Assembly (NCBI GenBank): GCA_002772545.1
Contig: PFDR01000015.1
Span: 1 to 54,410, forward strand
Source of the DNA: Candidatus Peregrinibacteria bacterium CG10_big_fil_rev_8_21_14_0_10_49_10
GTDB taxonomy: Bacteria; Patescibacteriota; Gracilibacteria; Peribacterales; Peribacteraceae
Length of the DNA: 54,410 nt
Direction: 5' to 3'
Shown here piece after piece: positions 4,534 through 39,000 of this stretch (position 1 is the first letter of the stretch; every line of letters starts with the position of its first letter). The notes beneath the pieces were generated by a model. The model was given only the letters and a program-made list of their open reading frames with translations. It made no database searches and had not been told where the DNA came from. Made by a program: the position numbers and the translations under genes.

Positions 4534-4713
4534 ATGATTTTCTCAAGGAAAAATGCAGGCAAGTGGGTAGCAAGCAAAAATGGGAGAGCAGTGGAAACTG
4601 CCAGAAAGCTTGAGACACTTCTGAAAAAGGTAACTAAAAGAGAGGATCAGTCTTCTCTTCGATTCGACAAAATTCCACCGAAAGCTTTTGCGGGTACCCT
4701 TTATGGAGTTTGA
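4534..4713 (+). CDS. Small 59-aa protein, just under the 60-aa ORF-track cutoff; possibly DUF5678-like
   Basis: My own translation gives MIFSRKNAGKWVASKNGRAVETARKLETLLKKVTKREDQSSLRFDKIPPKAFAGTLYGV. Its stop at 4711-4713 overlaps the ATG at 4703 of the next gene. It is preceded by an extended -10 element. The GKWVA...G..V motif recalls DUF5678, from memory only. Confidence 0.5.
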   Translation: MIFSRKNAGKWVASKNGRAVETARKLETLLKKVTKREDQSSLRFDKIPPKAFAGTLYGV

Positions 4714-5101
4714 ATACACGAAAAGAGAGTGGAGCAGAGGAATAGTGTATGTACCTACATTACCAATCTTATTGAATGGGTTTCCTGTTGGGCATGCACT
4801 TGTAGATACAGGAGCAGATGCAACATTGTTGCCTATGGAGTTACAGGAGTTACTGGCTGTTGAATTAGATACGCGGAATGCGATTCCTTTTACAAGTGCA
4901 GGAGGGGATGAATTTAAGGCTATACCTACTACCAAGCCTATAGAATATACGATTGAGCAGTCAGGATTTCGACCCAAAACCTGGAAGGGAATAGCATTTT
5001 TTGCCGAAGGGCAACCTGCTATATTGCTGGGGCAGTATCAGTGCTTGGAGAAACTGAGTATTACCTTTGATGCTCCTAACAAGAAGATTCGCCTTGCATA
5101 A
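4703..5101 (+). CDS. Retropepsin-like (clan AA) aspartic protease
   Basis: The catalytic motif ALVDTGADATLLP and the C-terminal ILLGQYQCLEKLSITFDAPNKKIRL pattern are typical of bacterial and archaeal retropepsin-like proteases. The ATG at 4703 is preferred over the TTG at 4688. Confidence 0.75.
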   Translation: MEFEYTKREWSRGIVYVPTLPILLNGFPVGHALVDTGADATLLPMELQELLAVELDTRNAIPFTSAGGDEFKAIPTTKPIEYTIEQSGFRPKTWKGIAFFAEGQPAILLGQYQCLEKLSITFDAPNKKIRLA

Positions 5102-5195: not shown

Positions 5196-5276
5196 CCTTC
5201 GAACCTTCGACAAGCTTAGGACTCAGGACACTCTCTGCCATTGCACTGATCCTTGTATCTATCTTATTTCTCACAT

Positions 5277-5354
5277 GGCGAGAGTAGCTCAGTTGGTTAG
5301 AGCGTCCGGTTGTGGTCCGGAAGGTCGTGGGTTCGAAACCCATCTCTCGCCCCA
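5277..5354 (+). tRNA. tRNA-His (anticodon GTG) with encoded G-1 and encoded CCA
   Basis: Hand-folded cloverleaf. The 8-bp acceptor stem GGCGAGAG/CTCTCGCC includes G-1:C73. D arm is GCTC-AGTTGGTTA-GAGC. Anticodon arm is TCCGG-TTGTGGT-CCGGA. T arm is GTGGG-TTCGAAA-CCCAT. Confidence 0.9.
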
Positions 5355-5439
5355 TTCGTCTTCACGGTGAACTTGTACAATGGTCTCAGTTATTGTACAT
5401 TCTCTTACTTTGGCGATCCCGTTACGACGCAATGGAGCT

Positions 5440-5679
5440 ATGTATTACGTTTATATTCTAGAATCGGAGAAGAACACAAAGCATTGGTATGTTGGTGTAA
5501 CACGAGATCTCAATCGTCGCTTGAACGAACATAATGCTGGAGATAGCATTCATACAAATAAATTTAAACCCTGGAAAATAAAGAACTACACTGCATTCAA
5601 TAGTCAGAAAAAGGCAGAGGCATTCGAAAGATACTTAAAATCAAACTCTGGCCGTGTGTTCTCTAAACGACATTATTAG
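5440..5679 (+). CDS. Stand-alone GIY-YIG nuclease-domain protein (UPF0213/YhbQ-like), 79 aa
   Basis: MYYVYILESEKNTKHWYVGVTRDLNRRLNEHNAG is the canonical GIY..YIG..R..H/N layout. The ATG at 5440 aligns with the usual family N-terminus, and the ORF-track start at 5380 adds 20 unlikely residues. Confidence 0.85.
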   Translation: MYYVYILESEKNTKHWYVGVTRDLNRRLNEHNAGDSIHTNKFKPWKIKNYTAFNSQKKAEAFERYLKSNSGRVFSKRHY

Positions 5680-5773
5680 TGTATGGGTTAGTTGCGGTGT
5701 AGCAGTATCGCCAACATCACCTCTGGAATACTCCACAAAGAACCATGCAGCACCTTAACTGCGAAGCCGAACA

Positions 5774-5792
5774 AAACCCATCTCTCGCCCCA
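5774..5792 (+). repeat. 19-nt perfect direct repeat of the tRNA-His 3' end (partner 5336-5354), att-like
   Basis: aaacccatctctcgcccca occurs at 5336-5354, inside the tRNA (T loop to CCA), and again at 5774-5792. The flanking cgaa..aaaccc extends the similarity with a 2-nt indel. Confidence 0.85.
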
Positions 5793-5927
5793 CAGTTGAA
5801 TTCGTGACGAAAGCAAGTCCGCCGTAGGCGGACGTAGCTTGAGTCCGAAGATACTGTGTGCTGGGACGTTTGCCATAGCAAACGGAGCAGTACTGCATGA
5901 AGAGATCGGATATGTACATGAGAAGGC

Positions 5928-8552
5928 TTATTCTCCATCTTTCTCCTGTAGAGGAATCTCCCCGGAGTCCTGCAGTTTTTGCTGATCTAAACTGTCTGCA
6001 CTAATGAGAAACTGTACATCATCATCTCCTTCCTGCTTCGCAGCCGCATTGGATGGTGTTTCCTGTGGGGGAATAGGGGTGCCCTTGAGCCATTCAGGCG
6101 GAGGAGCTTCTGGTTTTTTGGCTGCGGGAGCGGATGGTGTTTTTTCTTGAGGTACGGGTTTTGATTCTGCGGCAACAGATGTTTGTTCTTTGGGGGCAGG
6201 AGCAGGTGCAGCAGCCGGTGCAGAATTCTGTCCATTTGCTTTTTCCTCTTGTTCGCGCTTGCGCTTATTTTCTCTATAGCGTTGGCGCTTGCGGCGTTTG
6301 CGTTCCTGTTCGCGCTCTTCTCTGGTCTTATCACCATTTACTTGGACTGGAGCTTTAGATGTTACAGGAGCGGGTGTGGATTCCTTCTGCTTCTCTACCG
6401 GTACCCGTGCAGAAGAGGCAGGTCCGACAACAGTTGCTGGCTCTTCAGCTTTTTCTGCCGGTTTCTGTGGTGCCTTTGAAACTTCAGATGTTGTACCGGC
6501 AAGTGATGCTGCGGGTGCAGGTTTATCTGCAGTTTTCTCCGTGCTGCCCGCAAGCCATGGTGGGAGTGCAGCGTCATCCTTGGGAGGTGTGGTTTTTACA
6601 GGTGCCTCCTGTTTAGTTGGTTCTGTAACGGCTGGAGGAATCTTTTCCGAAGGAGCAGTCTCTTTTACTGCAGGTGCAGGTGGGGGCGGAGGTGGTGGTG
6701 GCGTCTGTTCTGTTTTCTGACTTGTACCGGCGAGCCACGCTGGGAGAGGTGGCTCCTGCTTCTTTTCTGCTGAAGTAGACTCTTTTGGCGTAGCAATGGT
6801 TTCTTTTTTCTCCGGAGCAGAAGTTTCGTTTGGCGCCTCTGGTGCTACAGGTTCCTGCGCGGACTCTGCAGTTTGGCTTTTCTGCACGCTAGATGAGGGG
6901 GCGAGCCAGGAAGGCATTTCTTTCTGTGCACCAGTCGTAGTTTCTTTCTTTTCTGTTGTGGGCGCAGCCGGAGTGGTCGTAGAACTGCCTTGCAACCAGG
7001 AAGGGACACTTGTGGGTTCCGATTGAGTGGGCGTTTCCGTTGGGCCTGCGGAGGCAACGGGCTTCAAAGGTTCCTGCGGAGGAGCAGGTGTTTCCTTTGG
7101 TGCCGTTTCTGCTGTACTTGGTGAGGGGGCCAACCAGCTGGGAACCTGGCGATTTACTTCGGGCGTTTCCGGTGCGGGAGATGCCTGTTCAGAGTCGTCT
7201 GCAGGTTTGGTGTTTTCTGCTGTTTCTTCCTTCTTTTCTTCGTTTGCATCCAGATCTGTATCCGCATCTTCATTTTTTGTGTCTGCCTTGTCTTCCTCTT
7301 TGTCCTCTTTCTTCAGTTCCATGAGAGGGAGTGCGGTGGTGCTCTCCGGAGAGTCACCAACCAATTTTTTCTCTGCAGCCTCAAGAGACTTCTGCAGATT
7401 CATCCCTTTTAGTTTTGAAACTACAAATACCACAAGCATTCCTATACCCAGTGACACAGCGAGTACCACCAGAGCCTTAAGAATCGTTTTCATCAGAGAG
7501 CCTCCTGCTTTTGTGTCGCCTTCGGGTTTCTGTTTCCCATCATTTTTTCCTGCATCTGTCGTGGGTGCCTTGTCACTGTTTTTTACGGAAACTTCCTTCT
7601 CCAGCTCAAGGAGTTTTGCGCCCGATCGGGCATCTGTAATACGCACTTGTACGTTGTAGGTTTGTTCCGTGGGGAAGGTATGTGTAGGTTCGTCCAGCAG
7701 GCTCTGTGTACCGTCTCCGAAGTTCCAGTAGTACAATGCCGGTACGGCAATAAGACCGGAACCGGTGCGTACCGCAAATGCGTATGTACCATCTCCACGG
7801 GGTTCAACAGTCAAGCCTGTTTTTGCTCTTTGCTCCTGCGCTTCTCTGAGGGCTTTTTGCACATACAGCTGAGAAACTACATCTATCTGCTGCGTTATAA
7901 GCGCACCGTTTTTTAGGCGTGCCGCTATGAGCATGGTCTGTTTTTCCAGTGTAGGTTTGAGCCAAATATGCAGGCTGCCCCGTCCCTGCGCAAAAATACT
8001 GTTTGCCAAAATGTTGTCATTGTAGGTATCGCCATCACCATTCAGGTCTTCTGCAATATTGATGTCCATGGCGAGTTGTTCAATATCTGCATGAATGATG
8101 TCCAGACGAATGAGTCGTTCTCCTCCCTCCAGTTGAATGCTGCCCTCTGCGTTTAGGGCCGGGGATGTTTTTACAATCTGAGGAGTTTCCTTTGTGGATT
8201 GCGTAATGAGAGGAGCATCGTTACTTGTTTGTATACGAAAGATGGTGCGTACCGATCCTTCTTCTTTCTCTACAACTTCGCCGTTTAAGAAGTACTCCGC
8301 TATTTCGGTGGGACGCATGCTAAAGAGTACGGATCTCTTTGCCTGCTCAAATGTGCGTCCTTTGCTCAGAACCCAGTTTACTGCGGCAGAGGGTGTGCTC
8401 TCCGCATAAATTTCAAAGATGCTGCCGGGCCTGAGTGCAAGGGTTTCCTGAATACTCGTTATTTCCTGCGCTCTCACAGAACTGGCTATGCCCAGTGGAA
8501 GCACGAGGAGTGCTGCGAGAACAAAACCAGGGGAGAGAATGCGTTTCAACAT
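5928..8552 (-). CDS. Large single-pass surface protein: signal peptide, ectodomain with a PKD domain, TM helix, and a ~490-aa disordered Pro/Lys/Glu/Thr-rich tail with six PxWL motifs
   Basis: The likely start is MLKRILSPGFVLAALLVLPLGIASSVRAQE (ATG at 8552, 22 nt after the upstream gene). The PKD signature is YYWNFGDGTQS...HTFPTEQTYNVQVRITD. An EF-hand/dockerin-like loop DLNGDGDTYNDN is present. The TM helix is ILKALVVLAVSLGIGMLVVFVV. The tail motifs are VPSWLAPS, VPSWLQGS, MPSWLAPS, LPAWLAGT, LPPWLAGS and PPEWLKGT. Confidence 0.85.
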   Translation of the reverse strand: MLKRILSPGFVLAALLVLPLGIASSVRAQEITSIQETLALRPGSIFEIYAESTPSAAVNWVLSKGRTFEQAKRSVLFSMRPTEIAEYFLNGEVVEKEEGSVRTIFRIQTSNDAPLITQSTKETPQIVKTSPALNAEGSIQLEGGERLIRLDIIHADIEQLAMDINIAEDLNGDGDTYNDNILANSIFAQGRGSLHIWLKPTLEKQTMLIAARLKNGALITQQIDVVSQLYVQKALREAQEQRAKTGLTVEPRGDGTYAFAVRTGSGLIAVPALYYWNFGDGTQSLLDEPTHTFPTEQTYNVQVRITDARSGAKLLELEKEVSVKNSDKAPTTDAGKNDGKQKPEGDTKAGGSLMKTILKALVVLAVSLGIGMLVVFVVSKLKGMNLQKSLEAAEKKLVGDSPESTTALPLMELKKEDKEEDKADTKNEDADTDLDANEEKKEETAENTKPADDSEQASPAPETPEVNRQVPSWLAPSPSTAETAPKETPAPPQEPLKPVASAGPTETPTQSEPTSVPSWLQGSSTTTPAAPTTEKKETTTGAQKEMPSWLAPSSSVQKSQTAESAQEPVAPEAPNETSAPEKKETIATPKESTSAEKKQEPPLPAWLAGTSQKTEQTPPPPPPPPAPAVKETAPSEKIPPAVTEPTKQEAPVKTTPPKDDAALPPWLAGSTEKTADKPAPAASLAGTTSEVSKAPQKPAEKAEEPATVVGPASSARVPVEKQKESTPAPVTSKAPVQVNGDKTREEREQERKRRKRQRYRENKRKREQEEKANGQNSAPAAAPAPAPKEQTSVAAESKPVPQEKTPSAPAAKKPEAPPPEWLKGTPIPPQETPSNAAAKQEGDDDVQFLISADSLDQQKLQDSGEIPLQEKDGE

Positions 8553-8574
8553 TGCAGAGAGGTTGTGTGAGCGT

Positions 8575-8949
8575 TTAGTTCGGAAGATTTGCCATAAATT
8601 GCACAATACCCTGTGCAAGCAGAATGATGATCAGACCGATAACAGCGTAGAAAATAATGCGCTTTGCCCTGTCCTTTGCCTCTTCCTCGCCGCCACTGAA
8701 CACCATGAGAATACCCGCAATGACAATTACCACTACAGCCGCAAGTGCCATGAACGAAAGTACTGTTTTGATGATGGTAACCACTCTTTCTCGAATAGTT
8801 GCCCGTCCTACAATGTTTCCTGCTTCACTGGCGCCTGCGCCCAGTCCACCACCTCCGTAGACCGCAGCCTGCACAGCTGTAGAAGTTGTACCGAGTGAGA
8901 CAAGAAGTGCCGTAAGGGTAGGAGAGATTCTGCTGAGAAGACGTTTCAT
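8575..8949 (-). CDS. Small secreted two-TM protein, T4SS pilin-like (TrbC/VirB2-type family common in CPR bacteria)
   Basis: 124 aa. It has a signal peptide (LTALLVSLGTTSTAVQA), a short ectodomain and then two TM helices separated by SGGEEEAKDRAKR. The layout ...AGILMVFSGG..E..ak..i..aviGLiIilLA..IV.F matches the T4SS-pilin architecture as I remember it. Confidence 0.6.
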   Translation of the reverse strand: MKRLLSRISPTLTALLVSLGTTSTAVQAAVYGGGGLGAGASEAGNIVGRATIRERVVTIIKTVLSFMALAAVVVIVIAGILMVFSGGEEEAKDRAKRIIFYAVIGLIIILLAQGIVQFMANLPN

Positions 8950-9061
8950 CTGTAGGGTGGGTAAAGATCATACTATGATAGCACAAATGACCTTCTGATG
9001 CCATTTTATTTGGATAGAGGTTTGTGAAGGAACCAGAACCTTTCTGGCTATTGTATTTGGT

Positions 9062-10144
9062 ATGCCGTATCTGTACTACTCCAGATCCTACATACCACAT
9101 ACCACATACGACATACTTTTTATACCGTGGACGCGCTATGCTTGTTTCGTGCATCCTTCCTCACCCGCACAGGTTATTGCTGCCGCAGGCACAGAGGCTT
9201 TTTTAGTCTCAAATCTTGTAAATGTTCGTTATATATCGGGTGTGGATGTGAGTGAGGGTATGCTGCTTATTACTCCGCGTTCGGCCGTTTTATTTGTGGA
9301 TGGAAGATACAGCGAAGTGGCAAGTAAAGACGTACGTAGAGGTACGCAGGTACGACCTTTGGCTTCTCTTCCAACGATACTGGGACATCTTGCCGAATGC
9401 GGCTGTGAATCTGAAGCAGTCACACTCGCACAATTTCGCAACTGGAAGAGGAAATTTAAGAACACAAAATTTATTCAAAAATCCAAAATTGTGGAGCAGT
9501 TTCGTCGGACGAAAGATGCAGATGAAGTCCGAAAATTTCGCAGGGCACAACAGATGACCACCACTCTTCTTACAAGAGTTCCGGATTGGTTGCGGGGCGA
9601 AATCACAGAAAAAGCTCTAGCCCGGACGTTGCGCACAGCAGCCGATGAACTTGGCGCCGACGGGCTATCCTTTGAACCTATAGTGGCTTTTGGTACACAT
9701 ACCAGTCGTCCCCATCATCACCCCACCACTCGGCGTCTTCGTACGGGAAACATAGTGCAAATTGATGTAGGAGTACGGTACGGAGGATACTGTGCAGACC
9801 AGAGTGCGGTTTTCTTCACCGGAAAAAAGACACAGAAACAGCAGCGTGTATTACAGGCTGTGCAGGAGGCAAAAGATACGGCACTGGCACTCGTGAGGTC
9901 CGGAGTTTCTACGCATACATTGGATAAAGAAGCACGTAGAGTTCTTCGTTCCTACGGTCTGGAAAAGTATTTTATCCACTCACTGGGTCATGGTGTGGGA
10001 CTGGAAATTCATGAGGGTGCACGTATTTCCCTGCGTGTTCCTGAGGAATTCTTGCAGAAGGGGGAAATTGTCACTATAGAACCGGGTGTCTACATTCCGG
10101 GTCAATTTGGTGTACGGTTGGAAGAGGAGGTAGTTGTGGCATAG
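9062..10144 (+). CDS. pepP: Xaa-Pro aminopeptidase / M24 family peptidase
   Basis: Metal-ligand motifs VQIDVGVRYGGYCADQS, HSLGHGVGLEIHE and VTIEPGVY...GVRLEE are present. The true start is probably downstream of 9062 (for example the in-frame GTG at 9149), because the first ~29 codons cover a heptamer repeat and look non-coding. Confidence 0.85.
   Translation: MPYLYYSRSYIPHTTYDILFIPWTRYACFVHPSSPAQVIAAAGTEAFLVSNLVNVRYISGVDVSEGMLLITPRSAVLFVDGRYSEVASKDVRRGTQVRPLASLPTILGHLAECGCESEAVTLAQFRNWKRKFKNTKFIQKSKIVEQFRRTKDADEVRKFRRAQQMTTTLLTRVPDWLRGEITEKALARTLRTAADELGADGLSFEPIVAFGTHTSRPHHHPTTRRLRTGNIVQIDVGVRYGGYCADQSAVFFTGKKTQKQQRVLQAVQEAKDTALALVRSGVSTHTLDKEARRVLRSYGLEKYFIHSLGHGVGLEIHEGARISLRVPEEFLQKGEIVTIEPGVYIPGQFGVRLEEEVVVA
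9090..9117 (+). repeat. Four tandem heptamers (ACATACC ACATACC ACATACG ACATACT)
   Basis: Read directly from the sequence. It lies in the divergent region between the pilin-like gene and pepP. Confidence 0.8.
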
Positions 10145-10273
10145 GCATAGTGTATGCGCACTCTGAAACAAAAGTTAAAAATACATTACAATGCATCAAT
10201 ACAAATAAAAGTACCTGTTTTGTCATTTCAACCGGAAAGATCAAAAACGCAATTTTTGCTATACTGATAGGAA

Positions 10274-11644
10274 TTGAACACACACATGAACATTCCACGT
10301 CGCATCTTTCTCACGTTGGCACTTGTGCTACTCATCTGTCCTGTGCGGGCGGGGAGTAACCGTGAGCCGTATGAGCAGGAGTTTCTCATTACGGCGTATT
10401 ACTCGCCGCTGCCCGGACAGTGCTGCTATGTGAAAGGCGGGTACGAGGCCGATAAAGTACTGAACGGGGAAGGCAAGCAGGCCTCCGACGGCACGGCGGT
10501 GTACCCCGGCATGCTGGCAGCTCCTGCCAGTTATCCCTACGGCACTAAAGTGGATTTGCCCGGCATTGGTGTGCTCACTGTGCATGATAGAGGTGGAGCA
10601 ATTCAGGAACTGCAGAGCGGTATGCATCGCCTGGATGTATGGGTGGGTTATGGAGAGGAGGGCCTTGCACGCGCACTGGAATTCGGTTTGCAGCATGTGC
10701 GTGGTACGGTTTACCCACCAGGTTTTCACCAGCCGCAAACGCATCTGGCACTGGAAAATCTCCCGGCACCCTTAGGGCGGCTGGAGAGTTACAAACTGTC
10801 GTATTTCGGTTTGTTGGCATTGCGTGCCCAGAAGGACGACCAGAGTCTCTCTGTACGTATGCTCCAGGAGCAGCTGAAGGACATGGGTTATTTCCGCCAT
10901 CCCATCACGGGTTTGTATGGTGAGGTGACTCAGCAGGCACTGGCACACTTTTTGCAGGACTATCATCTCAGTGAACCCACAGATGAGCTCACAGCTGAAA
11001 CAGCTGCGTTCCTCCTTTCTGCGGCACATCGCAAAGGTGTTGCCAATCCCATTCAGGAATACGTAGATGCGGAGAGCCAACCGGAAACTCTGCGTGAAGC
11101 ACAGCGTATATTGCGATTTTTAGGCTACTACCGAGGCAGAACAGATGGTCTGTACACAGAAGCGCTTGCCGATGCCATCCTCCGTTTTCAGCAGGAGAAT
11201 TTTCTGGTCGGCACACAGGATGATCCCGGAGCAGGTCGCATTGGTCCGCTGACCATGCAGCAAATTCGTGGAGCTTGGGACCGCAAACTCGTTGCAGAAC
11301 GTGCAGAGAAATTCATGCTCCTTCATGACGTGGTCGTGCACATTGATGCGGCAAATTTGTCCGTGGAACAGTTTCTTTCGGAAGGGGATAACGGTTCCCA
11401 GGTCAGACGTTTGCAGTCGCTTCTTGCAGAAGGTGGATACTTTCCCAAAAAGATGATCAACGGAAACTACGGGCCGCTTACAGCGGATGCAGTTTTGCAG
11501 TACCAACTTGCACGGAACATTCTTCATTCTCCGCAGGAACACGGTGCCGGCGTGGTGGGTCCTGCAACTCTTACATTGCTTCGCAAAGAGCAGAGTCGTG
11601 CGTTGTATCAGTTGGTAAGGGCAGAGGGAAGGCAGGCACTCTAA
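10274..11644 (+). CDS. Secreted cell-wall enzyme: 3D (MltA-like) domain followed by three peptidoglycan-binding (PG_binding_1-type) repeats
   Basis: A signal peptide is present (IFLTLALVLLICPVRA). The 3D domain reads ITAYYSPLPGQ...DGTAVYPGMLAAP..YPYGTKVDLPGIGVLTVHDRGGAI...LDVWVG. The three repeats follow the pattern vr.LQ..L...GYf....tG.yg..T..Al..FQ. The start is either the TTG at 10274 or the ATG at 10286. Confidence 0.85.
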   Translation: MNTHMNIPRRIFLTLALVLLICPVRAGSNREPYEQEFLITAYYSPLPGQCCYVKGGYEADKVLNGEGKQASDGTAVYPGMLAAPASYPYGTKVDLPGIGVLTVHDRGGAIQELQSGMHRLDVWVGYGEEGLARALEFGLQHVRGTVYPPGFHQPQTHLALENLPAPLGRLESYKLSYFGLLALRAQKDDQSLSVRMLQEQLKDMGYFRHPITGLYGEVTQQALAHFLQDYHLSEPTDELTAETAAFLLSAAHRKGVANPIQEYVDAESQPETLREAQRILRFLGYYRGRTDGLYTEALADAILRFQQENFLVGTQDDPGAGRIGPLTMQQIRGAWDRKLVAERAEKFMLLHDVVVHIDAANLSVEQFLSEGDNGSQVRRLQSLLAEGGYFPKKMINGNYGPLTADAVLQYQLARNILHSPQEHGAGVVGPATLTLLRKEQSRALYQLVRAEGRQAL

Positions 11645-11650
11645 AGTCAA

Positions 11651-12733
11651 TTGCACTTCTGTCTCGGGACTTGCACTCTATACTCGGTGAAGTCGCTTAC
11701 CCTTTTTTTGCTGGCATGCATGTTCCCCTGTTCTGCCTTTGCAAGCGGTCCACTTAGCCGTCGTGATGGGTTTTTGCTTATTTGGGATTCCATTCGTCGC
11801 CCCGTCTACGAGACGTCTGTGCAACCTTTTACAGATGTTTCTGAGGGTGAGGAGGGGTATACGGAAATTACCTACGCCAAGGGAAGAAAGTTTTTTGATG
11901 AGGGTATGACTCATTTTCGTCCCGATGATCCACTGACCCAGGAAGATGCACTCATCTGGATCTTTCGTTCCAGAAACGTGGTTGAGCGACCCTCCATAGA
12001 GCGTTCCGATATCCACCGTCTCCTGGAGCGTTATCCCATTGCAGATTTCCGTGGAGATGCCAACACGCAGACGCGGGAAGAAGTTCTGGATCTCCTCATG
12101 GCGCTGGATACTCTTCTTATAGAAGAGGTGCATACAGTGAGCTACTACGCCGATGATTTCCATGGGAAAACAACGGCATTCGGAGAAAAATTCGATATGG
12201 AAGACTTCACTGCGGCACATCGCAGTTTTCCGGAAGATACGCTTGTACAGGTCACAAATGTGGAGAACAGGAAAAGTGTAACCGTGCGTGTGAATGACCG
12301 TGGGCCCTATGTGGAGGGTCGGGACATGGATTTAAGCAGGGCTGCATTTGAAAAAATTGCGCCCATTTCACAAGGCGTGCTCCATGCTACCTTTCGTCGC
12401 CTCGGAGATGTGGATCTCGTCGGCGAGTGCGAGGATGTCCCCCGTACCTATCAGCGACGTATAACACGGGATGTACGTTTTCACCGTGGTATTCCACATA
12501 CTTTTTCCCTGGGAGAAACGCTCTTCCTGGGGTCAAACAGGTACTTTGTTGTGCGTGGTATTACATTCCCGGACGGCGCGAGCATCCGGGTACAGGATTT
12601 TGTAGGCCCCCGTGAGCGTTTCCAGTTCACACCTTCTGTTACGGGCGAGTATCGCTTTCTTGTAGGTACTGTGCAGGGGAACCAGCGGGAGATGGTGATG
12701 TCTGTCTCTTCCTGTTCTCGTGAGCCATCGTAA
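11651..12733 (+). CDS. RlpA-like double-psi beta-barrel (lytic transglycosylase-type) secreted protein
   Basis: The RlpA/DPBB signature is YYADDFHGKTTAFGEKFDMEDFTAAHRSFPEDTLVQVTNVENRKSVTVRVNDRGPYVEGRDMDLSRAAFEKIA. The N-terminal signal is LTLFLLACMFPCSAFA. The start may be the GTG at 11687. Confidence 0.8.
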   Translation: MHFCLGTCTLYSVKSLTLFLLACMFPCSAFASGPLSRRDGFLLIWDSIRRPVYETSVQPFTDVSEGEEGYTEITYAKGRKFFDEGMTHFRPDDPLTQEDALIWIFRSRNVVERPSIERSDIHRLLERYPIADFRGDANTQTREEVLDLLMALDTLLIEEVHTVSYYADDFHGKTTAFGEKFDMEDFTAAHRSFPEDTLVQVTNVENRKSVTVRVNDRGPYVEGRDMDLSRAAFEKIAPISQGVLHATFRRLGDVDLVGECEDVPRTYQRRITRDVRFHRGIPHTFSLGETLFLGSNRYFVVRGITFPDGASIRVQDFVGPRERFQFTPSVTGEYRFLVGTVQGNQREMVMSVSSCSREPS

Positions 12734-12899
12734 TGCTCCAGATGCAGATCCAAAAGTTGCCTGGACCGCCTATCCAAATTCAAAAAGCGGATACCACCTA
12801 TGACCCGTTCCTACAACGCGAACTGCTACCCCCAATGGGAAAAATATGCTACAATACAGCGATTTCTTGCTATTCTTTCCCTAACTCTCTCTTCTCTCC

Positions 12900-15512
12900 G
12901 TGGGTGCATTCCTTGCCTTCTTCTTCTGGCCTATTGCTCTAGGCATTCTCGCTCTGCTCACGAGTATTGTGAATGCAGCTATCTGGGGCCAGCTCCTTGG
13001 TTTTTTCATTTCCAATCCTCTGGAAGGGGTCTTGTGGGTGGTGACCATCTACTGTCTGTGGAGAGCCATAAAGAAGTATTTCCGTCTCTACTACGCTTTG
13101 CGGCAGTCAAAGAACTTGGTCGCTTACAAAGTCATCCAGCCCCGCAGTGATAGCAAAGTGGACCAGGAGAAACGTACAGATAAAGACTTCAAAGAGAAGA
13201 TGGCTGTAATGGAGCAGCTCTACCGCGCACTCTGGGAGGTTCGCAGTTTGACCATTTGGCAGTCACTCCATTTCTGGTTGTTTCGCAACATCATCATCAG
13301 CATGGAGCTTTGTTTAGAAAAAGGAGAACTGATGTTTTACATCGTCACACAACCGAGGTTTGCTTCTATTGTAGAAAAACAGATTACGGCCTTTTATCCC
13401 GATGCAGAAGTATTTCCGGAAGAAGTGCCGGACATTTGGCCGAAGGGCAAACAGCTTGTGGGGTATAACATGGCTCTCAAGCGGCCCTTCATGTACCCCA
13501 TCCGTTCCTACGAACAGATGCAAGATGATCCGCTCAATGGCATTGCAAACGTACTCAGTAAACTGAAGGAAGACGAAAAAGCTGCCATTCAAATGGTGAT
13601 GACTCCCTCTTTTTCCAACAAGTGGGGGAGGCAGGCAAAGGAGCAGGCATCTCTCAAATTTAAAGGCAAGAAGGAGAATTTGTTCAGTGGTATTCCCGGA
13701 CTTTCCATCGTGGGCTACATCTTCAGTATGTTTGCCACCAGTTCCACTGGTTCCACCTCCGCTCCCGGTGCGAGCAAGGGGGATGCATTCATTCGTATGA
13801 TTCAACCGGAGGAAGAGCTCTACAAACGCATGGGAGAAAAAGGCGGTATGAGTTTTTATCACTGCAATATTCGTTTGCTCGCTTCCGCCGGAACCTGGGA
13901 GAGGGCACTGGAAATTACGAATAACATGCAGGTGGCCTTTAATGCTTTTAAAGACCTGTACGGAAACTTCTTTGTAAACAAGCGCATGCTGTGTGAATTT
14001 ATGCCACTCAAGTGGAATGCACCGCTCATTTACAAACTCTGGAAGCGCAGATTGAATGGCTACTTCAGCCCCCGTTGCATGCTGGTAGAGAAGGAACTAG
14101 CCGGCCTCTACCACTTCCCGGATAGCCGCTACAACAAAATCCCCATTATTCAGTGGAGTTCGTACAAGGTGCTTCCGCCTCCGCCGGATGCTCCTGTAGA
14201 AGGCATACTGCTTGGCAACAACAAGTTCCGGGGTGTGGAGACACCCATTCGTTTCATGGGTACGGACCGCACACGTCATCACTACATCATCGGTAAATCC
14301 GGTTCCGGTAAATCCGCACTGCTCAGCTGGATGTCGCGCCAGGATATCGCAAATGGTGACGGGGTGTGCCTGGTAGATCCTCATGGGGATCTGGTCGAAG
14401 ATGCACTGGCACACACGCCAAAATCCCGTGCAAAAGAGGTCATCGTATTCGATCCTTCGGATACAAACAGGCCCATGGGTTTGAACATGCTGGAAGCCAC
14501 AACTCCCGAAGAAAAAGACCGGGCGGCTCTGGATGCCATGGAAATCTTTATTAAACTTTTCGGTAATGAAATCTTCGGTCCCCGCATTCAGCATTACTTC
14601 CGTAACGGCTGTCTTACACTCATGGATGATGAAGAGGAGGGTGCTACACTCATCGATGTTCCGCGATTGTTTGTAGATGACGAGTTCCAGCGCTACAAGG
14701 TGAGTAAAATTCGCAATCCGGTTGTACGCAGTTTCTGGGACCATGAAATGGCACAAACCGGCGATAGAGAAAAGCAGGAAATGATTCCGTACTTCAGTTC
14801 CAAATTTGGTCCATTCATTACGAACACGACCATGCGTAACATTATTGGCCAGCCAAAAAGCGCATTCAATATCCGTGAAGTCATGGATTCCAAAAAGGTA
14901 CTGTTGGTCAACCTCTCCAAGGGAAAGATCGGCGATACGAATGCGGAACTTTTGGGCCTTATTTTTGTGAATAAAATCAGTATGGCAGCTATGAGCCGTG
15001 CAGATGTTCCCCGGGCAGATCGTAAACGTTTCTACCTCTACGTGGACGAATTCCAGAACTTTGTCACGGACGCATTTGCCACTATTCTTTCCGAGGCGCG
15101 CAAATACGAACTTGCACTGGTTATGGCGCACCAGTATATAGGCCAGCTTGTGGGCAAAACATCTGCCTACGGGGATTCAAGCACCAAAATGCGCGATGCT
15201 GTATTTGGTAACGTCGGTACCATCATGAGTTTTAAAATCGGTGCGGAGGATGCCGAGTACATGGCCAAGGAATTTGCCCCTATTCTCTCGGAGCAGGACG
15301 TTATCGGTATTCCAAACTTCAACTGTTACTGCAAACTGAATATCAATAATGTGCAGTCCCGCCCATTCAGTATGTCCACCATATGGGATGAGTCCGACCG
15401 TAACGAAGAACTGGCAAAACTCGTAAAGGAATACAGCAGACTCAAGTTTGCCCGTAAAAAAGTATTCGTGGATCAGGAAATTGAAGACAGAATTGGTATT
15501 AACCATGCATAG
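12900..15512 (+). CDS. Membrane-anchored P-loop ATPase of the FtsK/HerA superfamily, VirD4/TraG-VirB4-like (T4SS-type)
   Basis: 870 aa with a GTG start. There are two N-terminal TM helices. Walker A is HHYIIGKSGSGKSALL and is followed by VCLVDPHGDL...NRPMGLNMLE. Walker B and the TraG-D_C-like block read RFYLYVDEFQNFVTDAFATILSEARKYELALVMAHQYIGQL. Confidence 0.85.
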   Translation: MGAFLAFFFWPIALGILALLTSIVNAAIWGQLLGFFISNPLEGVLWVVTIYCLWRAIKKYFRLYYALRQSKNLVAYKVIQPRSDSKVDQEKRTDKDFKEKMAVMEQLYRALWEVRSLTIWQSLHFWLFRNIIISMELCLEKGELMFYIVTQPRFASIVEKQITAFYPDAEVFPEEVPDIWPKGKQLVGYNMALKRPFMYPIRSYEQMQDDPLNGIANVLSKLKEDEKAAIQMVMTPSFSNKWGRQAKEQASLKFKGKKENLFSGIPGLSIVGYIFSMFATSSTGSTSAPGASKGDAFIRMIQPEEELYKRMGEKGGMSFYHCNIRLLASAGTWERALEITNNMQVAFNAFKDLYGNFFVNKRMLCEFMPLKWNAPLIYKLWKRRLNGYFSPRCMLVEKELAGLYHFPDSRYNKIPIIQWSSYKVLPPPPDAPVEGILLGNNKFRGVETPIRFMGTDRTRHHYIIGKSGSGKSALLSWMSRQDIANGDGVCLVDPHGDLVEDALAHTPKSRAKEVIVFDPSDTNRPMGLNMLEATTPEEKDRAALDAMEIFIKLFGNEIFGPRIQHYFRNGCLTLMDDEEEGATLIDVPRLFVDDEFQRYKVSKIRNPVVRSFWDHEMAQTGDREKQEMIPYFSSKFGPFITNTTMRNIIGQPKSAFNIREVMDSKKVLLVNLSKGKIGDTNAELLGLIFVNKISMAAMSRADVPRADRKRFYLYVDEFQNFVTDAFATILSEARKYELALVMAHQYIGQLVGKTSAYGDSSTKMRDAVFGNVGTIMSFKIGAEDAEYMAKEFAPILSEQDVIGIPNFNCYCKLNINNVQSRPFSMSTIWDESDRNEELAKLVKEYSRLKFARKKVFVDQEIEDRIGINHA

Positions 15513-15585
15513 TCTGAACCACAGATTAAGATGTTTATGTACACCTGCGGTATCTGTGTAGTCAGCAAAATCTGTGGTTCAGACT
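15511..15585 (+). repeat. 17-bp perfect inverted repeat (agtctgaaccacagatt / aatctgtggttcagact) with a 41-nt loop; possible terminator or protein-binding site
   Basis: The arms are at 15511-15527 and 15569-15585. The left arm overlaps the stop codon of the ATPase gene. The repeat is followed by tcttgcattttgcc. Confidence 0.6.
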
Positions 15586-15622
15586 TCTTGCATTTTGCCG
15601 TATCTCTGTTTAGCCTTTGTCC

Positions 15623-15934
15623 ATGACTTCACTTAAGCAAGCACGGGATCTGTTCCGCATGCAACGGGACGCCAAGCGGGTTCGCAAACAGCTCAAAAAG
15701 GTTCATGTAGAGGCAGAATCTGCGGGTGTAAAAGTAGTGGTAAACGGTGAGCAGGAAGTTATTCGCATCGAAATAGCCGCTGACGTACCAAAGGAATCTC
15801 TTCCGGCTTTACTGATGGATACGCTCAACCGTGCGCTTAAAAAAGCTCAGGTTGTTTCTGCACAGCATATGCAGGAGGTCATGGGAGATATGGGGTTACC
15901 AACAGAGGAGGGAATGCGGGGCATGGGAAGTTAG
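15623..15934 (+). CDS. ybaB: YbaB/EbfC family nucleoid-associated protein
   Basis: The size (~104 aa) fits, and the pattern ...MQRDAKRVRKQLKKVHVEAESAGVKVVVNGEQEVIRIEIA...L.D....A...A is typical of YbaB. Confidence 0.8.
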   Translation: MTSLKQARDLFRMQRDAKRVRKQLKKVHVEAESAGVKVVVNGEQEVIRIEIAADVPKESLPALLMDTLNRALKKAQVVSAQHMQEVMGDMGLPTEEGMRGMGS

Positions 15935-16021
15935 TATTTCATACAATCTGCCCTTTTGTTCTTCTCGTCTGGGATTTTCTGTAGTGACGAGCCACTCGCG
16001 ACTCATCTACTATAGCTCAGT

Positions 16022-17026
16022 ATGAAGCGTGCATTCCTCATTATTATTGGCCTCGTTCTCGTTGGAATATTCTCCTACACCCATGCGCTTTCACCGCTGA
16101 ATGCTGCCAGTCAGGATCGTCATACCATTGCCATAGAGCCGGGCTTTTCTGTACAGAAGATTGCACAGTTGCTCGTTGACCGTGCAATCATTCGGTCTCC
16201 CTTTGCATTTACAACTTACGTTCGACTACATGGCAAAGCAGCTTCGCTGCAGGCGGGAAAGTTTGTTTTGCGTCCGGCTATGTCCGTGCAAGAAATTGTG
16301 CTGTTGCTCCAGAATGGCAAAGCTGACGAAGCCATTATTACCATTCCGGAAGGGTATACCGTGCGACAAATAGATGCGCTTATGGCTCACAAAGGATTTT
16401 CCGGTACGGGTGATATTCTTCGCTGTGCGCGTGAATGTGATTTTTCCTCCTTTACCTTCCTGCCGCAGGTGGGAGGTCTTGCGGAGAGGGGTGGCAAAAT
16501 AGAAGGGTACCTCTACCCGGATACCTATTTTGTGAGCAAGGATGACTTCTTTGCTAAATTCTTTTTGGAACGTCTCCTTACCACCTACCGGAATAAAGTT
16601 ATTGAGCCCTATGCTGAAACCATAGAGCAGTCGGGTCGTACGCTGCATGAACTGGTGACTATGGCTTCTCTTATAGAGGAAGAAACTCTCACGAATGCCG
16701 AGCGCCCGGTCGTCTCGGGTATTCTCTGGAAGAGGTACGATGACGGAAGGGGACTTGGTGTAGATGCCACCGTGCGTTACATTCTGGACAAGCCGACCCA
16801 GGAGATCACCACCGGAGACCTCAATACAAACTCACCTTACAATACCAGGAAGTTTAAGGGTCTTCCTCCCGGGCCCATTGCCAATGCGGGTACAAAGAGT
16901 TTTGTGGCTGCACTCTTTCCCAAGGAAAGCGAGTACTGGTACTACCTGCATGGAGACGATGGAGTCATCCACTATGCCGTTACCAACGAGGAGCATAATG
17001 TGAATCGGTATTTGTACATACACTAA
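16022..17026 (+). CDS. mltG: Endolytic murein transglycosylase MltG (YceG-like)
   Basis: An N-terminal TM helix is followed by a LysM-like region. The catalytic region reads ASLIEEETLTNAERPVVSGILWKR...LGVDATVRY...NSPYNTRKFKGLPPGPIANAG. Confidence 0.9.
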   Translation: MKRAFLIIIGLVLVGIFSYTHALSPLNAASQDRHTIAIEPGFSVQKIAQLLVDRAIIRSPFAFTTYVRLHGKAASLQAGKFVLRPAMSVQEIVLLLQNGKADEAIITIPEGYTVRQIDALMAHKGFSGTGDILRCARECDFSSFTFLPQVGGLAERGGKIEGYLYPDTYFVSKDDFFAKFFLERLLTTYRNKVIEPYAETIEQSGRTLHELVTMASLIEEETLTNAERPVVSGILWKRYDDGRGLGVDATVRYILDKPTQEITTGDLNTNSPYNTRKFKGLPPGPIANAGTKSFVAALFPKESEYWYYLHGDDGVIHYAVTNEEHNVNRYLYIH

Positions 17027-31150: not shown

Positions 31151-33418
31151 TTAGCTGTTAGCCATGGTGTCTATGTACACCTTACGAGCTTTAGCACCGT
31201 CCGCAGGACCAATAATGCCCTTTGCTTCCATGATGTCCAGCAGTCGGGCCGCGCGTGCGTACCCTACCTTCAGTTGTCGTTGCAGCAGACTGGCGGAGGC
31301 TCTTCCTGTTTCCTGAACCACGCGTACGGCTTCAAAGAACATCGTATCTCCTCCATCGTCATCGGCCTCCAGATCGATAGCTGTAGCGTTCCCTCCCACT
31401 ACAGGTGCATCTTCTCCTTCTTCCGTTTCCAGAGGAATTTCTTCCGTAATTTTTCCTCCACCGGCTATTTTTATGGAATTGATGACCCGCTCGACTTCTT
31501 TTGTAGAAGTAAAAATACCCTGAATACGGACAGGATTTGCAATCTCTGCTGTGAGATAAAGCATGTCTCCTTTTCCCAAAAGATCCTCTGCTCCAATGCC
31601 GTCTAAAATAGTGCGGCTATCTACAGAGCTCACTGTTCGGAAGGCAATGCGGGTGGGTACGTTCGCTTTAATGAGACCTGTAATCACATCGACGCTCGGG
31701 CGTTGCGTAGCGATAATGAGGTGAAGACCGACTGCACGTGCCATTTGTGCCACACGGACGATCATGGTTTCAGTATCCCGCCGGAACTGACGCATCATCA
31801 GATCCGCAAGCTCATCAATGACAATCACAATGCGCGGCATGAAGTTTTCATCTTCCTCCTGCTTTTCGTTGTACTCGTTAATATTACGCACACCTTCTTC
31901 CGAAAAGCGGTGAAGGCGGCGTCCCATTTCCGCTACTGCCCAACGGAGCGCCTGGAGAGCCTTTTCGGATTCCGTAATCACGGGTGTGAGCAGGTGTGGG
32001 ATGCCGTCAAAGGGCATAAGCTCAACGCGTTTGGGGTCTATAAGAATCAATTTAAGCTGGTCCGGTGCATTCTGGTAGAGGAGGGACGTAAGAAAGGTAT
32101 TCATACACACAGATTTTCCCGAGCCGGTGGCACCGGCAATGAGAAGGTGGGGCATGTCATCCAGGGGAGTCACCACCGCCTTGCCTCCTACATCGCGTCC
32201 CAATGGGAGGGTCAGGCTGGATTCCCCCTGCATAAATTCCGGACTTTCCAGTATTTCGCGCAGATGTACAATGGTTCTCTTGGAGTTGGGCATTTCTATA
32301 CCCACCAGAGATTTGCCCGGAATGGGTGCTTCTATACGGAGGCTGGAAGCAGCAAGAGCAAGAGCAAGATCATCTTTAAGGTTGGCGATGCGGCTGAGTT
32401 TTACGCCTTCCGCGGGTTCCAGTGTGAACTGGGTCACAGTGGGGCCGGGATGGGCATCGCGCACTTTCACTTCTATTTCAAACTCATTGAGTTTTTGCTC
32501 TATGAGTCGTGCCTGCTTTTTGAGCTCTTCGTCGTTTACCGTGAGCTCACTCTGCTTATTGTCCAGGAGTTCGTAGTCCGGAAACGTCCACTCCTCAAAA
32601 CGTGTGTCATGCATGGTAATGGTTTCGCGCATGGCTTTTATTTCCTCTTTGATCTTCTTTTTGGCCGCGTCCTTTACGGTTTGTTTTGCAAAGACCGGGC
32701 GCACAATATTGAGCTCGGGCGCTTTATGATCCTCTTCTATAAGATCATCTTCCTCTTTCTCCTGTTCCTCTTCCACATCTTCTTCCATGTGTACTGTTTT
32801 GCGGGCCTGACGAACTGGTGCCTCTTTTACTGTTTTGTTCCTGGAGACGAAGAGAGAGGCGAGTGAACGCAGAAGAGCCGGGAGATCGGGTTCAAAGGTG
32901 ATAAAGATCCCCACAACAAATACAGAACCAAGCACGGTATAGCCCACGGCACGGCTGGCAAAGAGAAGGAATGGCATGCTGGCCATAAATCCTATGGCTC
33001 CGGCGAGTTCATCTCTTCGCGGGGCAATCTCTTCTAGTGGGGCGCCTATGTGCATCATTCCCAGAAAAGAAGTGAGACAGAGTGCCAGGCCAAGCCAAAT
33101 GCGTGCGGGCATTTTTTCCGCTTTCGCTTTGGAACTTGGTGCAGATACAAACCAATGGAGGAGTCCGGAGGCTACCAGTGTCACCGGAAAGAGCGTGCCC
33201 CAGCTCCCGAAGAAGAAGACCAGAAAACGTTTCATACTCTCACCCATTAACCCTGCCTGCTGCTGCAGACCGAGTAAAATAAGGATACCAATACAAATTT
33301 GCACGGTACCGCTGATGTGTCGACGCGTATGGGGGTTGATCTTGAGTTGCTCCGCTGTTTTTTTGCGCGAGGAGGTGCGTCGTTTGCGCTTGGTGGTTCT
33401 GCGACTGGTACGTGCCAT
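31151..33418 (-). CDS. ftsK: DNA translocase FtsK/SpoIIIE
   Basis: N-terminal TM helices are present. The motor domain has HLLIAGATGSGKSVCMN and IVIVIDELADLMM, followed by a C-terminal gamma (winged-helix) domain SASLLQRQLKVGYARAARLLDIMEAKGIIGP. The ATG at 33418 is preferred over the TTG at 33436. Confidence 0.93.
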   Translation of the reverse strand: MARTSRRTTKRKRRTSSRKKTAEQLKINPHTRRHISGTVQICIGILILLGLQQQAGLMGESMKRFLVFFFGSWGTLFPVTLVASGLLHWFVSAPSSKAKAEKMPARIWLGLALCLTSFLGMMHIGAPLEEIAPRRDELAGAIGFMASMPFLLFASRAVGYTVLGSVFVVGIFITFEPDLPALLRSLASLFVSRNKTVKEAPVRQARKTVHMEEDVEEEQEKEEDDLIEEDHKAPELNIVRPVFAKQTVKDAAKKKIKEEIKAMRETITMHDTRFEEWTFPDYELLDNKQSELTVNDEELKKQARLIEQKLNEFEIEVKVRDAHPGPTVTQFTLEPAEGVKLSRIANLKDDLALALAASSLRIEAPIPGKSLVGIEMPNSKRTIVHLREILESPEFMQGESSLTLPLGRDVGGKAVVTPLDDMPHLLIAGATGSGKSVCMNTFLTSLLYQNAPDQLKLILIDPKRVELMPFDGIPHLLTPVITESEKALQALRWAVAEMGRRLHRFSEEGVRNINEYNEKQEEDENFMPRIVIVIDELADLMMRQFRRDTETMIVRVAQMARAVGLHLIIATQRPSVDVITGLIKANVPTRIAFRTVSSVDSRTILDGIGAEDLLGKGDMLYLTAEIANPVRIQGIFTSTKEVERVINSIKIAGGGKITEEIPLETEEGEDAPVVGGNATAIDLEADDDGGDTMFFEAVRVVQETGRASASLLQRQLKVGYARAARLLDIMEAKGIIGPADGAKARKVYIDTMANS

Positions 33419-33515
33419 ACGGGTAGTATATCGCAATATGTTTCAGTGCAAAACTCGATTTGTGCAACTTGGTGCTTCGGGTCTCCTTACTCACAAAAAG
33501 GTCTCAGGGGACTGT

Positions 33516-34909: not shown

Positions 34910-34962
34910 ATTTCACTTTTATGGTAAAATAGCTATTGAACGTACCTCTCTCGTACTTTCCT

Positions 34963-36762: not shown

Positions 36763-36843
36763 ACTCAGCAGCTTGATTAGCTTGGTTAGATGCTTCCGTT
36801 TCGATACCCTTACCATACGTCCCAGCTCTCACCCAAAGTTATC

Positions 36844-37584
36844 ATGCTGAAAAAGGTAGTCCCCCTCATTGAAACCGTAGATCTCCAGAAGTCGTATTTC
36901 AGTGGTGATCTTGAAACACCGGTACTGCACGGAATTGATTTTGTGATTCAGGAAGGAGAGTTTGTGTCCATCATGGGTCCTTCGGGATCCGGCAAGTCCA
37001 CCCTCATGCATATTTTAGGTTTTTTAGATACGCCGACCTCGGGCAGTTACCTCTTTCGTGGCGAGAAGACACGCGTACTGGAAGATGACGCTCTTGCGCG
37101 TATTCGCGCGACACGTGTGAGTTTTGTATTTCAGGCGTTCAACCTGCTTCCACGTACAACCGTTTTGGAAAATGTGATTCTTCCCCTGCTGTATCACCCC
37201 ACGATTCCTGCATCGGAGCGCGAAGAACGTGCTATGAAAGCCATTGCAGAGGTAGGTCTGACCGAACGTACCACCTATCTCACCAACCAGCTTTCCGGAG
37301 GGCAGCAGCAGCGTGTGGCTATAGCGCGTGCACTCGTGACAGAACCAGATATTATTTTTGCCGATGAGCCCACAGGAAACTTAGACAGTGCTTCCGGTTT
37401 ACAGGTCATGAACGTGCTGCAGGAACTCCACGATCACCAGGGCAGCACTATTGTGCTTGTCACACACGAAAAGGCTACGGCCGAGTATGCCGCGCGTATT
37501 ATTCAACTTCTGGATGGTCGTATTAGTTCAGATTCCCGGGACTTTAAGCGCAAAGATGCAAAGACCAATACAGATCTCAAATAA
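36844..37584 (+). CDS. ABC transporter ATP-binding protein, MacB/LolD/FtsE-like
   Basis: Walker A is GPSGSGKST, the signature is [15 protein letters not shown], Walker B is [12 protein letters not shown], and the H-loop is VLVTHE. Confidence 0.92.
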
Positions 37585-37602
37585 TTCGTTTCCACACCAT
37601 GC

Positions 37603-38829: not shown

Positions 38830-39000
38830 CTTCTTTTTCCTATGTCGGTACGGTCTATTGAAAGAACAAGTGTTACTGATTACTGCTTACTTCTTGTTTG
38901 CTATCTGTGAGTTACGATATGGCCAAAAAACAAGAATCAACAAGCAACACGTAACGAAAGATATCAATTCAATTACTTCAATGGACTTTCTTTATCTCCT

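Follow-up and report, generated by a model that had tools for sequence, protein, structure and literature searches.

Two neighbouring pieces of a putative chromosomal type IV secretion system in a genome of the Peribacteraceae

In 54,410 nucleotides of a contig from a bacterium that its best protein matches place in the Peribacteraceae (Peregrinibacteria; candidate phyla radiation (CPR)/Patescibacteria), hereafter the window, meaning the whole 54-kb stretch of DNA that was analysed, an initial annotation had described five genes as a compact envelope module resembling a type IV secretion system (T4SS). All five open reading frames (ORFs) are found where it had placed them. On the minus strand, the gene of a VirB2/TrbC-like T4SS pilin of 124 amino acids (aa) (8575..8949) is followed 22 nt downstream by that of an 874-aa bitopic PKD membrane protein (5928..8552). 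The plus strand carries the genes of a secreted 3D-domain protein with three PG_binding_1 repeats (456 aa, 10274..11644), of a secreted RlpA-family, lytic transglycosylase-like protein with a DPBB domain (360 aa, 11651..12733; 6 nt after the stop of the preceding gene) and of an 870-aa membrane ATPase (12900..15512). Between both units lies a gene for a Xaa-Pro aminopeptidase (M24; pepP, 9062..10144, plus strand; Peptidase_M24, 198.9 bits). We read this region, with a probability of about 60%, as two neighbouring pieces of a chromosomally fixed, relaxase-less Patescibacteria T4SS, the parts of which are scattered genome-wide in the class of the Peribacteria. ATPase-centred loci of relatives are labelled L001 etc. 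throughout.

The pilin call had been based on the layout of the protein, a signal peptide and two membrane-spanning segments. In the sequence, the signal peptide ends in AVQA, directly followed by AV, and a short charged loop (GGEEEAKDRAKR) connects the hydrophobic helices at aa 55-90 and aa 93-123. Profile comparison agrees with it: the protein matches the Pfam family T4SS_pilin (PF18895) with 39.2 bits (gathering cut-off 26.6); its scores against the TrbC model (19.8 bits) and the NCBIfam model Mbov_0395 for pilin-like proteins of a Mycoplasma integrative conjugative element (ICE; 23.8 bits) are under the respective cut-offs. PF18895 is carried by 52 of the 54 detected homologues, one of which is annotated in its source as 'VirB2 component (pilin)'. 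A second pilin paralogue is present in relatives as an orphan among housekeeping genes. The pilin and PKD genes would form a two-gene operon and be co-transcribed. Upstream of the pilin gene we found a sigma-70-like promoter match with an extended -10 element (8975..9004, minus strand; weak), and directly after the PKD gene a terminator-like hairpin (5817..5833, minus strand) with a 7-bp stem, six G-C pairs and a T-rich tail. Both come from consensus scans with totals near chance, the promoter count not being above the shuffled expectation, and thus give weak support for the operon boundaries.

The second protein of this operon has a signal peptide, one PKD domain (aa 272-312; 34.6 bits) and one transmembrane (TM) segment (aa 350-384), which separates an ectodomain of ~320 aa from a low-complexity tail of ~490 aa rich in Pro, Ala, Glu, Lys and Thr. 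As Lys-rich sequence directly follows the TM segment, the tail is predicted to be cytoplasmic, and it probably is. Of the former description as a single-pass surface protein, the single TM segment holds; the protein is bitopic and not mainly exposed at the surface, with only ~320 aa outside. In the window, the tail contains six P-x-W-L motifs (5928-7400, minus strand), and two to eight copies of P-x-W-[L/M] occur in every PKD orthologue (L001, L003, L004, L005 and L018). Every tail Trp of the orthologues falls within this motif; outside it, neither the sequence nor the length of the tail is well conserved. To judge from these sequences, the repeats have the look of short linear motifs for docking, strung along a disordered tail. 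The PKD protein is lineage-specific: the pilin/PKD gene pair is kept in L001-L005, L018 and L084, and PKD-protein orthologues adjoining the ATPase are confined to the Peribacteraceae. A seeming orthologue next to the ATPase gene in L038 was rejected, having only generic PKD repeats in common.

For the two wall enzymes, the domain assignments made before (3D plus three PG-binding repeats; RlpA-like DPBB) hold in Pfam and NCBIfam scans. In the 456-aa protein, a candidate wall-opening enzyme, the three PG_binding_1 repeats reach 90.9 bits and the N-terminal 3D domain stays sub-threshold at 15.6 bits; a 3D domain is matched by 10 of 11 members of its family (best E 8.9e-9). The 360-aa protein scores 74.6 bits with DPBB_1 and 106.8 with the RlpA model TIGR00413 (cut-off 82). 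Both enzymes lack the SLT or CHAP/NlpC-P60 catalytic domain expected of a VirB1-like hydrolase. True orthologues of the 3D/PG_binding protein adjoin the ATPase in rearranged order in five loci of distant Peregrinibacteria (L019, L022, L024, L026 and L027), where the gene lies downstream of the ATPase gene and the other neighbours differ (e.g. aspS upstream, an M23 peptidase nearby). RlpA-type orthologues are found beside the ATPase only in close Peribacteraceae. RlpA-like genes at this position in distant genomes had to be withdrawn: they really are Peptidase_M23 genes without DPBB similarity on direct comparison, and the claim stemmed from an iterated DPBB hidden Markov model that had drifted from 8 to 21 matches.

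The ATPase consists of two TM helices within aa 1-50, as predicted in the initial annotation, an N-terminal domain of the family DUF8128 (PF26449; about aa 60-432, DNA 13107-14195, from precomputed annotation) and a P-loop motor of the type found in type IV coupling proteins (T4CPs; aa 436-870); the AlphaFold2 model places a helical insert of the motor at aa 536-650. Walker A (GKSGSGKS, ~aa 465-472) and Walker B (DEFQ, aa 716-719) are present. The protein exceeds the cut-offs of TrwB_AAD_bind (39.8; cut-off 20.5), T4SS-DNA_transf (34.8; 20.1) and TraG-D_C (26.6; 22) and fits such T4CP models better than FtsK/HerA, the other affiliation that had been considered. It had also been termed 'VirD4/VirB4-type'. 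The first half of this name is upheld by the T4CP (VirD4/TrwB) models; the second is not upheld by VirB4 sequence models, since AAA_10 and CagE_TrbE_VirB gave no match and TIGR00929 only 13.6 bits (cut-off 643); a T4CP-type motor with a predicted VirB4-like N-domain describes the protein better. The family is very large, with 5400 representatives at 50% identity (E<1e-30), and its loci come from ten or more CPR lineages.

In a PDB profile search, TrwB and DotL were the sole convincing matches. The AlphaFold2 model of the full protein, built from a 105-sequence alignment, has a predicted local distance difference test score (pLDDT) of 87.6 and a predicted TM-score (pTM) of 0.80; in it, the N-domain has an alpha/beta fold and spans about aa 70-432. 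Foldseek placed its motor on TrwB with a TM-score of 0.64, and the best full-length matches were TrwK/VirB4 of R388. As a test of the VirB4 match, the N-domain was modelled alone, with an alignment from segments of homologous proteins (pLDDT 80, pTM 0.78). Its top 14 PDB matches were all TrwK/VirB4 chains (E 2.8e-6 to 2e-3) with TM-scores of 0.32-0.45, the best matches lying at 0.41-0.45; next came unrelated folds with poor scores. The ATPase would accordingly combine, in these models, a T4CP-type motor with a VirB4-like N-domain predicted to be homologous to that of VirB4. A literature search for DUF8128 returned no papers. A hydrophobic stretch in the N-domain (aa 261-296, DNA 13680-13790) coincides with the one loop that the model gives at low confidence; in some homologues (e.g. 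P0008) this loop has grown to one or two extra TM-like segments, and it may be a membrane-inserted hairpin.

The assignment of this ATPase to a T4SS is supported by four independent contexts of its homologues. A homologue encoded on a plasmid of Embleya sp. (NZ_CP108778; 25% identity, E 5e-54) aligns over aa 156-827, including part of the N-domain, and belongs to a typical monoderm T4SS cluster of the order TrbL/VirB6-like, PrgI, XF1762, VirB4-like (AAA_10/TraC), T4CP, Replic_Relax and SLT+NlpC/P60 hydrolase. With the VirB4-like protein of this cluster as a probe, a VirB4-like gene was found 1.2 kb downstream of the ATPase gene in L029 and L079. The corresponding conserved Gracilibacteria operon, coding for the DUF8128-T4CP, a SpoIIE phosphatase and the VirB4-like protein, was confirmed by independent gene calls and precomputed Pfam matches, and its VirB4-like protein is very highly conserved in Gracilibacteria. 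The operon lies at 5765-11926 in L093, 5995-11986 in L094, 195-6545 in L029 and 9948-16176 in L079; the position of a membrane SpoIIE/PP2C phosphatase between two T4SS ATPases hints at phospho-regulation.

In UGA-recoded Gracilibacteria (L015, L016, L034 and L052), 10-30 nt lie between the ATPase gene and genes of T4SS_pilin proteins. These proteins of ~300 aa and 6-8 TM helices are fusions of two or three T4SS_pilin domains (Pfam 55 bits), and small pilins occur there too. The fused-pilin regions extend over 5225-7506 (L015), 12717-14582 (L016), 851-1855 (L034) and 12633-16076 (L052), the last with a run of six pilin-domain genes distributed over both strands. The fourth context is the gene of the 3D/PG_binding orthologues beside the ATPase in the distant Peregrinibacteria named above. 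A motor-domain identity matrix resolves two ATPase clades in the class, and both pilin adjacency and 3D/PG-binding adjacency are found in each of them. This favours functional coupling over chance, adjacency having been counted in ATPase-centred loci without a genome-wide background rate. As a separate VirB4-like protein stands beside homologues and the Embleya copy is next to a relaxase-like gene, a coupling-protein role of the ATPase is more likely; it may handle pilin as well.

In close Peribacteraceae, whose ATPases are 66-88% identical, the pilin and PKD genes face a row of pepP, 3D/PG_binding, RlpA, ATPase, ybaB and yceG genes, and the full arrangement recurs in L001-L005, L018, L084 and L089/L090. 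The aminopeptidase gene accompanies the pilin/PKD pair in these relatives and is probably a bystander. Since synteny from hisS to leuS is generally conserved in the same organisms, the arrangement tells little about function. In L006 the wall-enzyme/ATPase unit is kept and the pilin/PKD pair is missing within 10 kb. The linkage in related genomes that the initial annotation had expected is thus found in close Peribacteraceae; the links to the RlpA and PKD genes do not reach beyond the family, and most classes have neither a pilin nor a wall enzyme beside the ATPase. Gene content was assessed by Pfam scans of 38 further ORFs (all presumed genes of at least 150 aa outside the claimed region and selected small ones) and extended by ~8 kb upstream, taken from the metagenome contig L084, which shares its hisS protein and the gene arrangement of the neighbourhood with the window. 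VirB4, VirB6, PrgI and relaxase are absent from the 38 scanned ORFs, in line with the absence of a relaxase, a VirB6-like protein and a second ATPase from the window noted before; of the FtsK family, they contain just one more ATPase, the housekeeping FtsK (31151-33436). The idea of a compact, self-sufficient five-gene module is therefore not supported: no VirB4, VirB6, VirB3 or relaxase is encoded in the window or ~8 kb beyond, and the whole arrangement is restricted to close Peribacteraceae and already broken in L006.

A self-contained machine could still be imagined in which pilin, PKD scaffold, wall enzymes and a hybrid ATPase suffice without VirB4 or VirB6, the N-domain performing the pilin extraction and polymerisation otherwise done by VirB4. 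A T4CP motor joined to a VirB4-like N-domain, as modelled, would suit such a machine, as would the lack of VirB4 and VirB6 near the genes of the window and the tight ATPase-pilin operons of L015, L016, L034 and L052. No further T4SS gene was seen in the flanks of the latter (at most 10 kb), as judged by sequence reading by eye for L052 and by ORF sizes and TM counts only for L015, L016 and L034. However, in close relatives of the same ATPase clade a VirB4-like ATPase is encoded separately within the operon, the homologue of Embleya is accompanied by VirB4, VirB6 and PrgI, VirB4 is reported for about 80% of Patescibacteria genomes (PMC12102498), and the five-gene arrangement is broken within the family (L006). 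We consider a machine of this kind quite improbable. The same low credence applies to the broader proposal that DUF8128 ATPases are a third, hitherto unrecognised lineage of T4SS motors, near-universal in the CPR and composed of a T4CP engine and a VirB4-type N-domain, which in the Peribacteraceae would make up a minimal VirB4-independent machine together with a single pilin, a PKD docking scaffold and wall enzymes.

That the locus is a fixed chromosomal one and not a conjugative element had been suggested before and is borne out. Housekeeping genes surround it, G+C content and base composition are flat across the region, relaxase and integrase are missing, and synteny is kept in relatives; from this we conclude that it is chromosomal and vertically inherited. 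A decayed remnant of an integrated conjugative element might come to mind, because genes for a pilin, a T4CP and wall hydrolases are characteristic of conjugation and genes for tRNA-His and a GIY-YIG protein lie nearby (5278-5679). Yet none of the marks of an ICE (relaxase, integrase, boundaries, atypical composition) was found at the locus, nor were repeats, and the ATPase is syntenic across many Peribacteraceae at 70-88% identity and occurs throughout the CPR, as fits long vertical inheritance under purifying selection. On the grounds of composition, synteny and missing mobility genes, we rejected this explanation as highly implausible.

An unbiased clustering of neighbours was carried out for 83 ATPase loci. 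In most CPR classes outside the Gracilibacteria (L035-L083, e.g. L080 9357-14507), a coiled-coil protein of ~140-165 aa is encoded upstream of the ATPase, and a soluble protein of ~200 aa downstream of it, followed by dnaX. Neither small protein has a Pfam match, and both may be conserved partners of the ATPase. Pilin-like small ORFs with two TM segments near the ATPase in other CPR classes did not make up a recurrent family. CPR-type ATPases also turned up in metagenome-assembled genome records labelled Nitrospirota, Methylomirabilota, Gammaproteobacteria and Bdellovibrionales (suspect loci: L012, L031, L037, L044, L047, L049, L050, L056, L060, L061, L064, L067 and L074). In the 12 of these with readable flanks, the neighbours are typical of the CPR in all but L012, so that bins or labels are probably wrong.

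The main rival to our reading is that the genes are neighbours by coincidence: the wall enzymes would be ordinary growth or division autolysins, the ATPase would have been exapted to a T4SS-independent translocase (e.g. for DNA handling linked to dnaX-ybaB), and the pilin would be served by T4SS genes elsewhere. Several observations that weigh against our reading speak at the same time for this one. Near dnaX and the two small genes, which is where the ATPase gene resides in most CPR classes, there are no T4SS genes and no wall enzyme, and in the window it is found by ybaB and yceG. Both wall enzymes come from common families (RlpA, 3D/PG_binding) with general housekeeping roles, yceG/mltG is close by, and the RlpA-type gene is tied to the ATPase in one family only. 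A T4CP homologue was reported to be non-essential for epibiotic growth of S. epibionticum (Southlakia epibionticum), unlike the T4SS cluster, and the authors of that survey consider exaptation of T4CPs to another function possible (PMC12102498). Further points against our reading are that VirB4, VirB6, VirB3 and relaxase were not found in the window and ~8 kb upstream, where virB3/virB4-type assembly genes for the pilin are accordingly missing too; that the Gracilibacteria VirB4-like protein, used as a query, had its best 120 matches filled by Gracilibacteria at 76% identity or more, by which no Peribacteraceae VirB4 is demonstrated; and that the likeness of the N-domain to VirB4 is a matter of AlphaFold models with moderate TM-scores (0.41-0.45). 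On the other hand, T4SS_pilin, 3D+PG_binding and VirB4-like families recur beside two ATPase clades in differing gene orders, and a full T4SS context surrounds the actinobacterial homologue. Coincidence is in our view unlikely, though clearly less so than the self-contained machine.

According to the preferred reading of two pieces of a dispersed chromosomal T4SS, the first piece would be the operon of VirB2-like pilin and lineage-specific bitopic PKD protein, and the second would comprise two secreted enzymes for peptidoglycan remodelling and, behind them, a pan-CPR ATPase of the VirD4/TrwB family with a VirB4-shaped N-domain. A membrane-anchored hexamer of this ATPase would power substrate transfer, pilin handling or both. 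The 3D/PG-binding and RlpA-like enzymes may open the wall locally, a VirB1-like role carried out by unrelated folds. The pilin would be exported, matured and built into a filament or conduit outside the cell, and the PKD protein may connect its extracellular domain with cytoplasmic docking motifs. The VirB4-like ATPase and the VirB3/VirB6-like membrane proteins would act together with the hexamer and be encoded elsewhere in the genome. Such a system would serve cell-cell interaction or uptake and delivery rather than conjugation, DNA conjugation being unlikely because there is no relaxase. Exchange of protein, nutrients or DNA with a host cell is a general expectation for the phylum (PMC10633639, PMC12102498).

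Systems of this kind have been described. The chromosomal T4SS of S. epibionticum is essential for epibiotic growth and contains an essential pilin array, and its cluster is without a recognisable coupling protein or relaxase (Wang et al. 2023, PMC10633639). Among 3,035 Patescibacteria genomes surveyed, VirB4 was reported in 2,417 (~80%), VirB2-like pilins in 1,948 assemblies, and 5,713 VirD4-like T4CPs in 2,918 genomes. Just 148 of these T4CPs were near virB4, and there were almost no relaxases; in Gracilibacteria the T4SS components are dispersed (Quinonero-Coronel et al. 2025, PMC12102498). Patescibacteria T4SSs are also covered by a 2025 review (PMC12857230), and the 2016 Peribacteria genome paper makes no mention of a T4SS (PMC4736985). 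The locus resembles the published systems in being chromosomal and relaxase-less, in its derivation from monoderm systems (mating-pair formation type FATA, MPF-FATA), in its PF18895 pilin, in a T4CP that is present in nearly all genomes and usually far from virB4, and in the dispersal of components in Gracilibacteria. It differs in that a single pilin gene is paired with that of a PKD/P-x-W-L protein, whereas a pilin array lies beside virB4 in those systems, and in that the T4CP adjoins two wall enzymes.

With the coupling proteins VirD4, TrwB of R388, DotL and Cag-beta, the ATPase shares two N-terminal TM segments, the P-loop motor and its helical insert, and TrwB is the best match of its C-terminal half in both sequence and structure. 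Unlike these, it has the extra ~370 aa of DUF8128 between TM segments and motor, and neither a relaxase nor a substrate-recognition partner is encoded nearby. VirB4/TrwK resembles it in the plan of N-domain and RecA-like motor, in total length and in the predicted fold of the N-domain; the differences are that the ATPase misses the VirB4 sequence models and that a genuine, separate VirB4-like protein stands beside homologues. The Embleya cluster has a full-length homologue of the ATPase with a wall hydrolase gene two genes off, but it is complete, plasmid-borne and equipped with a relaxase-like gene, and its hydrolases are of the SLT/NlpC-P60 type instead of 3D and DPBB. VirB1-type hydrolases (e.g. 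the SLT+CHAP proteins of Gram-positive conjugative plasmids) are likewise secreted, peptidoglycan-active proteins beside a T4SS ATPase; the catalytic folds of the enzymes in the window (3D, RlpA-type DPBB) are unrelated to theirs, and a dedicated role of these enzymes in the system is putative.

Downstream of the ATPase follow ybaB, for a nucleoid protein, and yceG/mltG (15617..17026, plus strand), a conserved context outside the claimed system. In three relatives, a DUF1622 membrane protein with two TM segments is encoded on the opposite strand between ATPase and ybaB genes (L001 12837-13256, L005 12602-13138, L089 3285-3671); it is absent from the window, where the gap amounts to 104 nt. The remainder of the window is occupied by housekeeping genes (gyrB, hisS, ybaB, yceG, der, leuS, rsmB, dnaG, rpoD, addA-like and ftsK), together with MacB-type ABC genes, a DEAD-box helicase gene and holB. 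The interval from hisS to the PKD gene contains an ORF for a retropepsin-like aspartyl protease (4688-5101), tRNA-His (5278-5354) and, at 5380-5679, a short gene for a GIY-YIG nuclease. This last gene may be a small mobile insertion, as L085 has no gene call at its position. The region 34936-40215 (plus strand) codes for a tripartite-style efflux set of a presumed monoderm, made up of a membrane-fusion protein like HlyD, an ABC ATPase of the MacB type and two permeases (MacB/FtsX). Two adjoining secreted or membrane proteins at 50383-52874 (minus strand), one of 503 aa with cohesin and fn3 domains and one of 327 aa without a Pfam match, may be surface attachment proteins as noted for Peribacteria.

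The suggestion that the system is under-described does not hold, because chromosomal T4SSs, VirB2-like pilins, missing relaxases and dispersed T4CPs have all been published for Patescibacteria (PMC10633639, PMC12102498, PMC12857230); the kind of system is known, and the locus adds a case from a lineage that has been studied less. The published work is centred on virB4 neighbourhoods, and we found in it no description of the DUF8128 N-domain or of the T4CP's own neighbours. Beyond the literature found go the VirB4-like predicted fold of this N-domain, the P-x-W-L-studded tail of the PKD protein and the lineage-specific partnerships of the ATPase.

For the specialist, T4CP and pilin genes on the chromosome of a CPR bacterium are no surprise. 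CPR bacteria depend on other cells, and in the sole CPR species tested a chromosomal T4SS is essential for epibiotic growth. The locus adds an example from the Peribacteraceae to the dispersal of T4SS parts in this class. In addition, it provides leads on the near-universal CPR 'coupling protein', namely an N-domain that is VirB4-like in structural models and the company of pilin, VirB4-like ATPase or wall enzymes in several lineages. If true, this hybrid architecture would bear on the divergence of VirB4 and VirD4 and on the question which ATPase handles the pilin in piliated monoderm systems.

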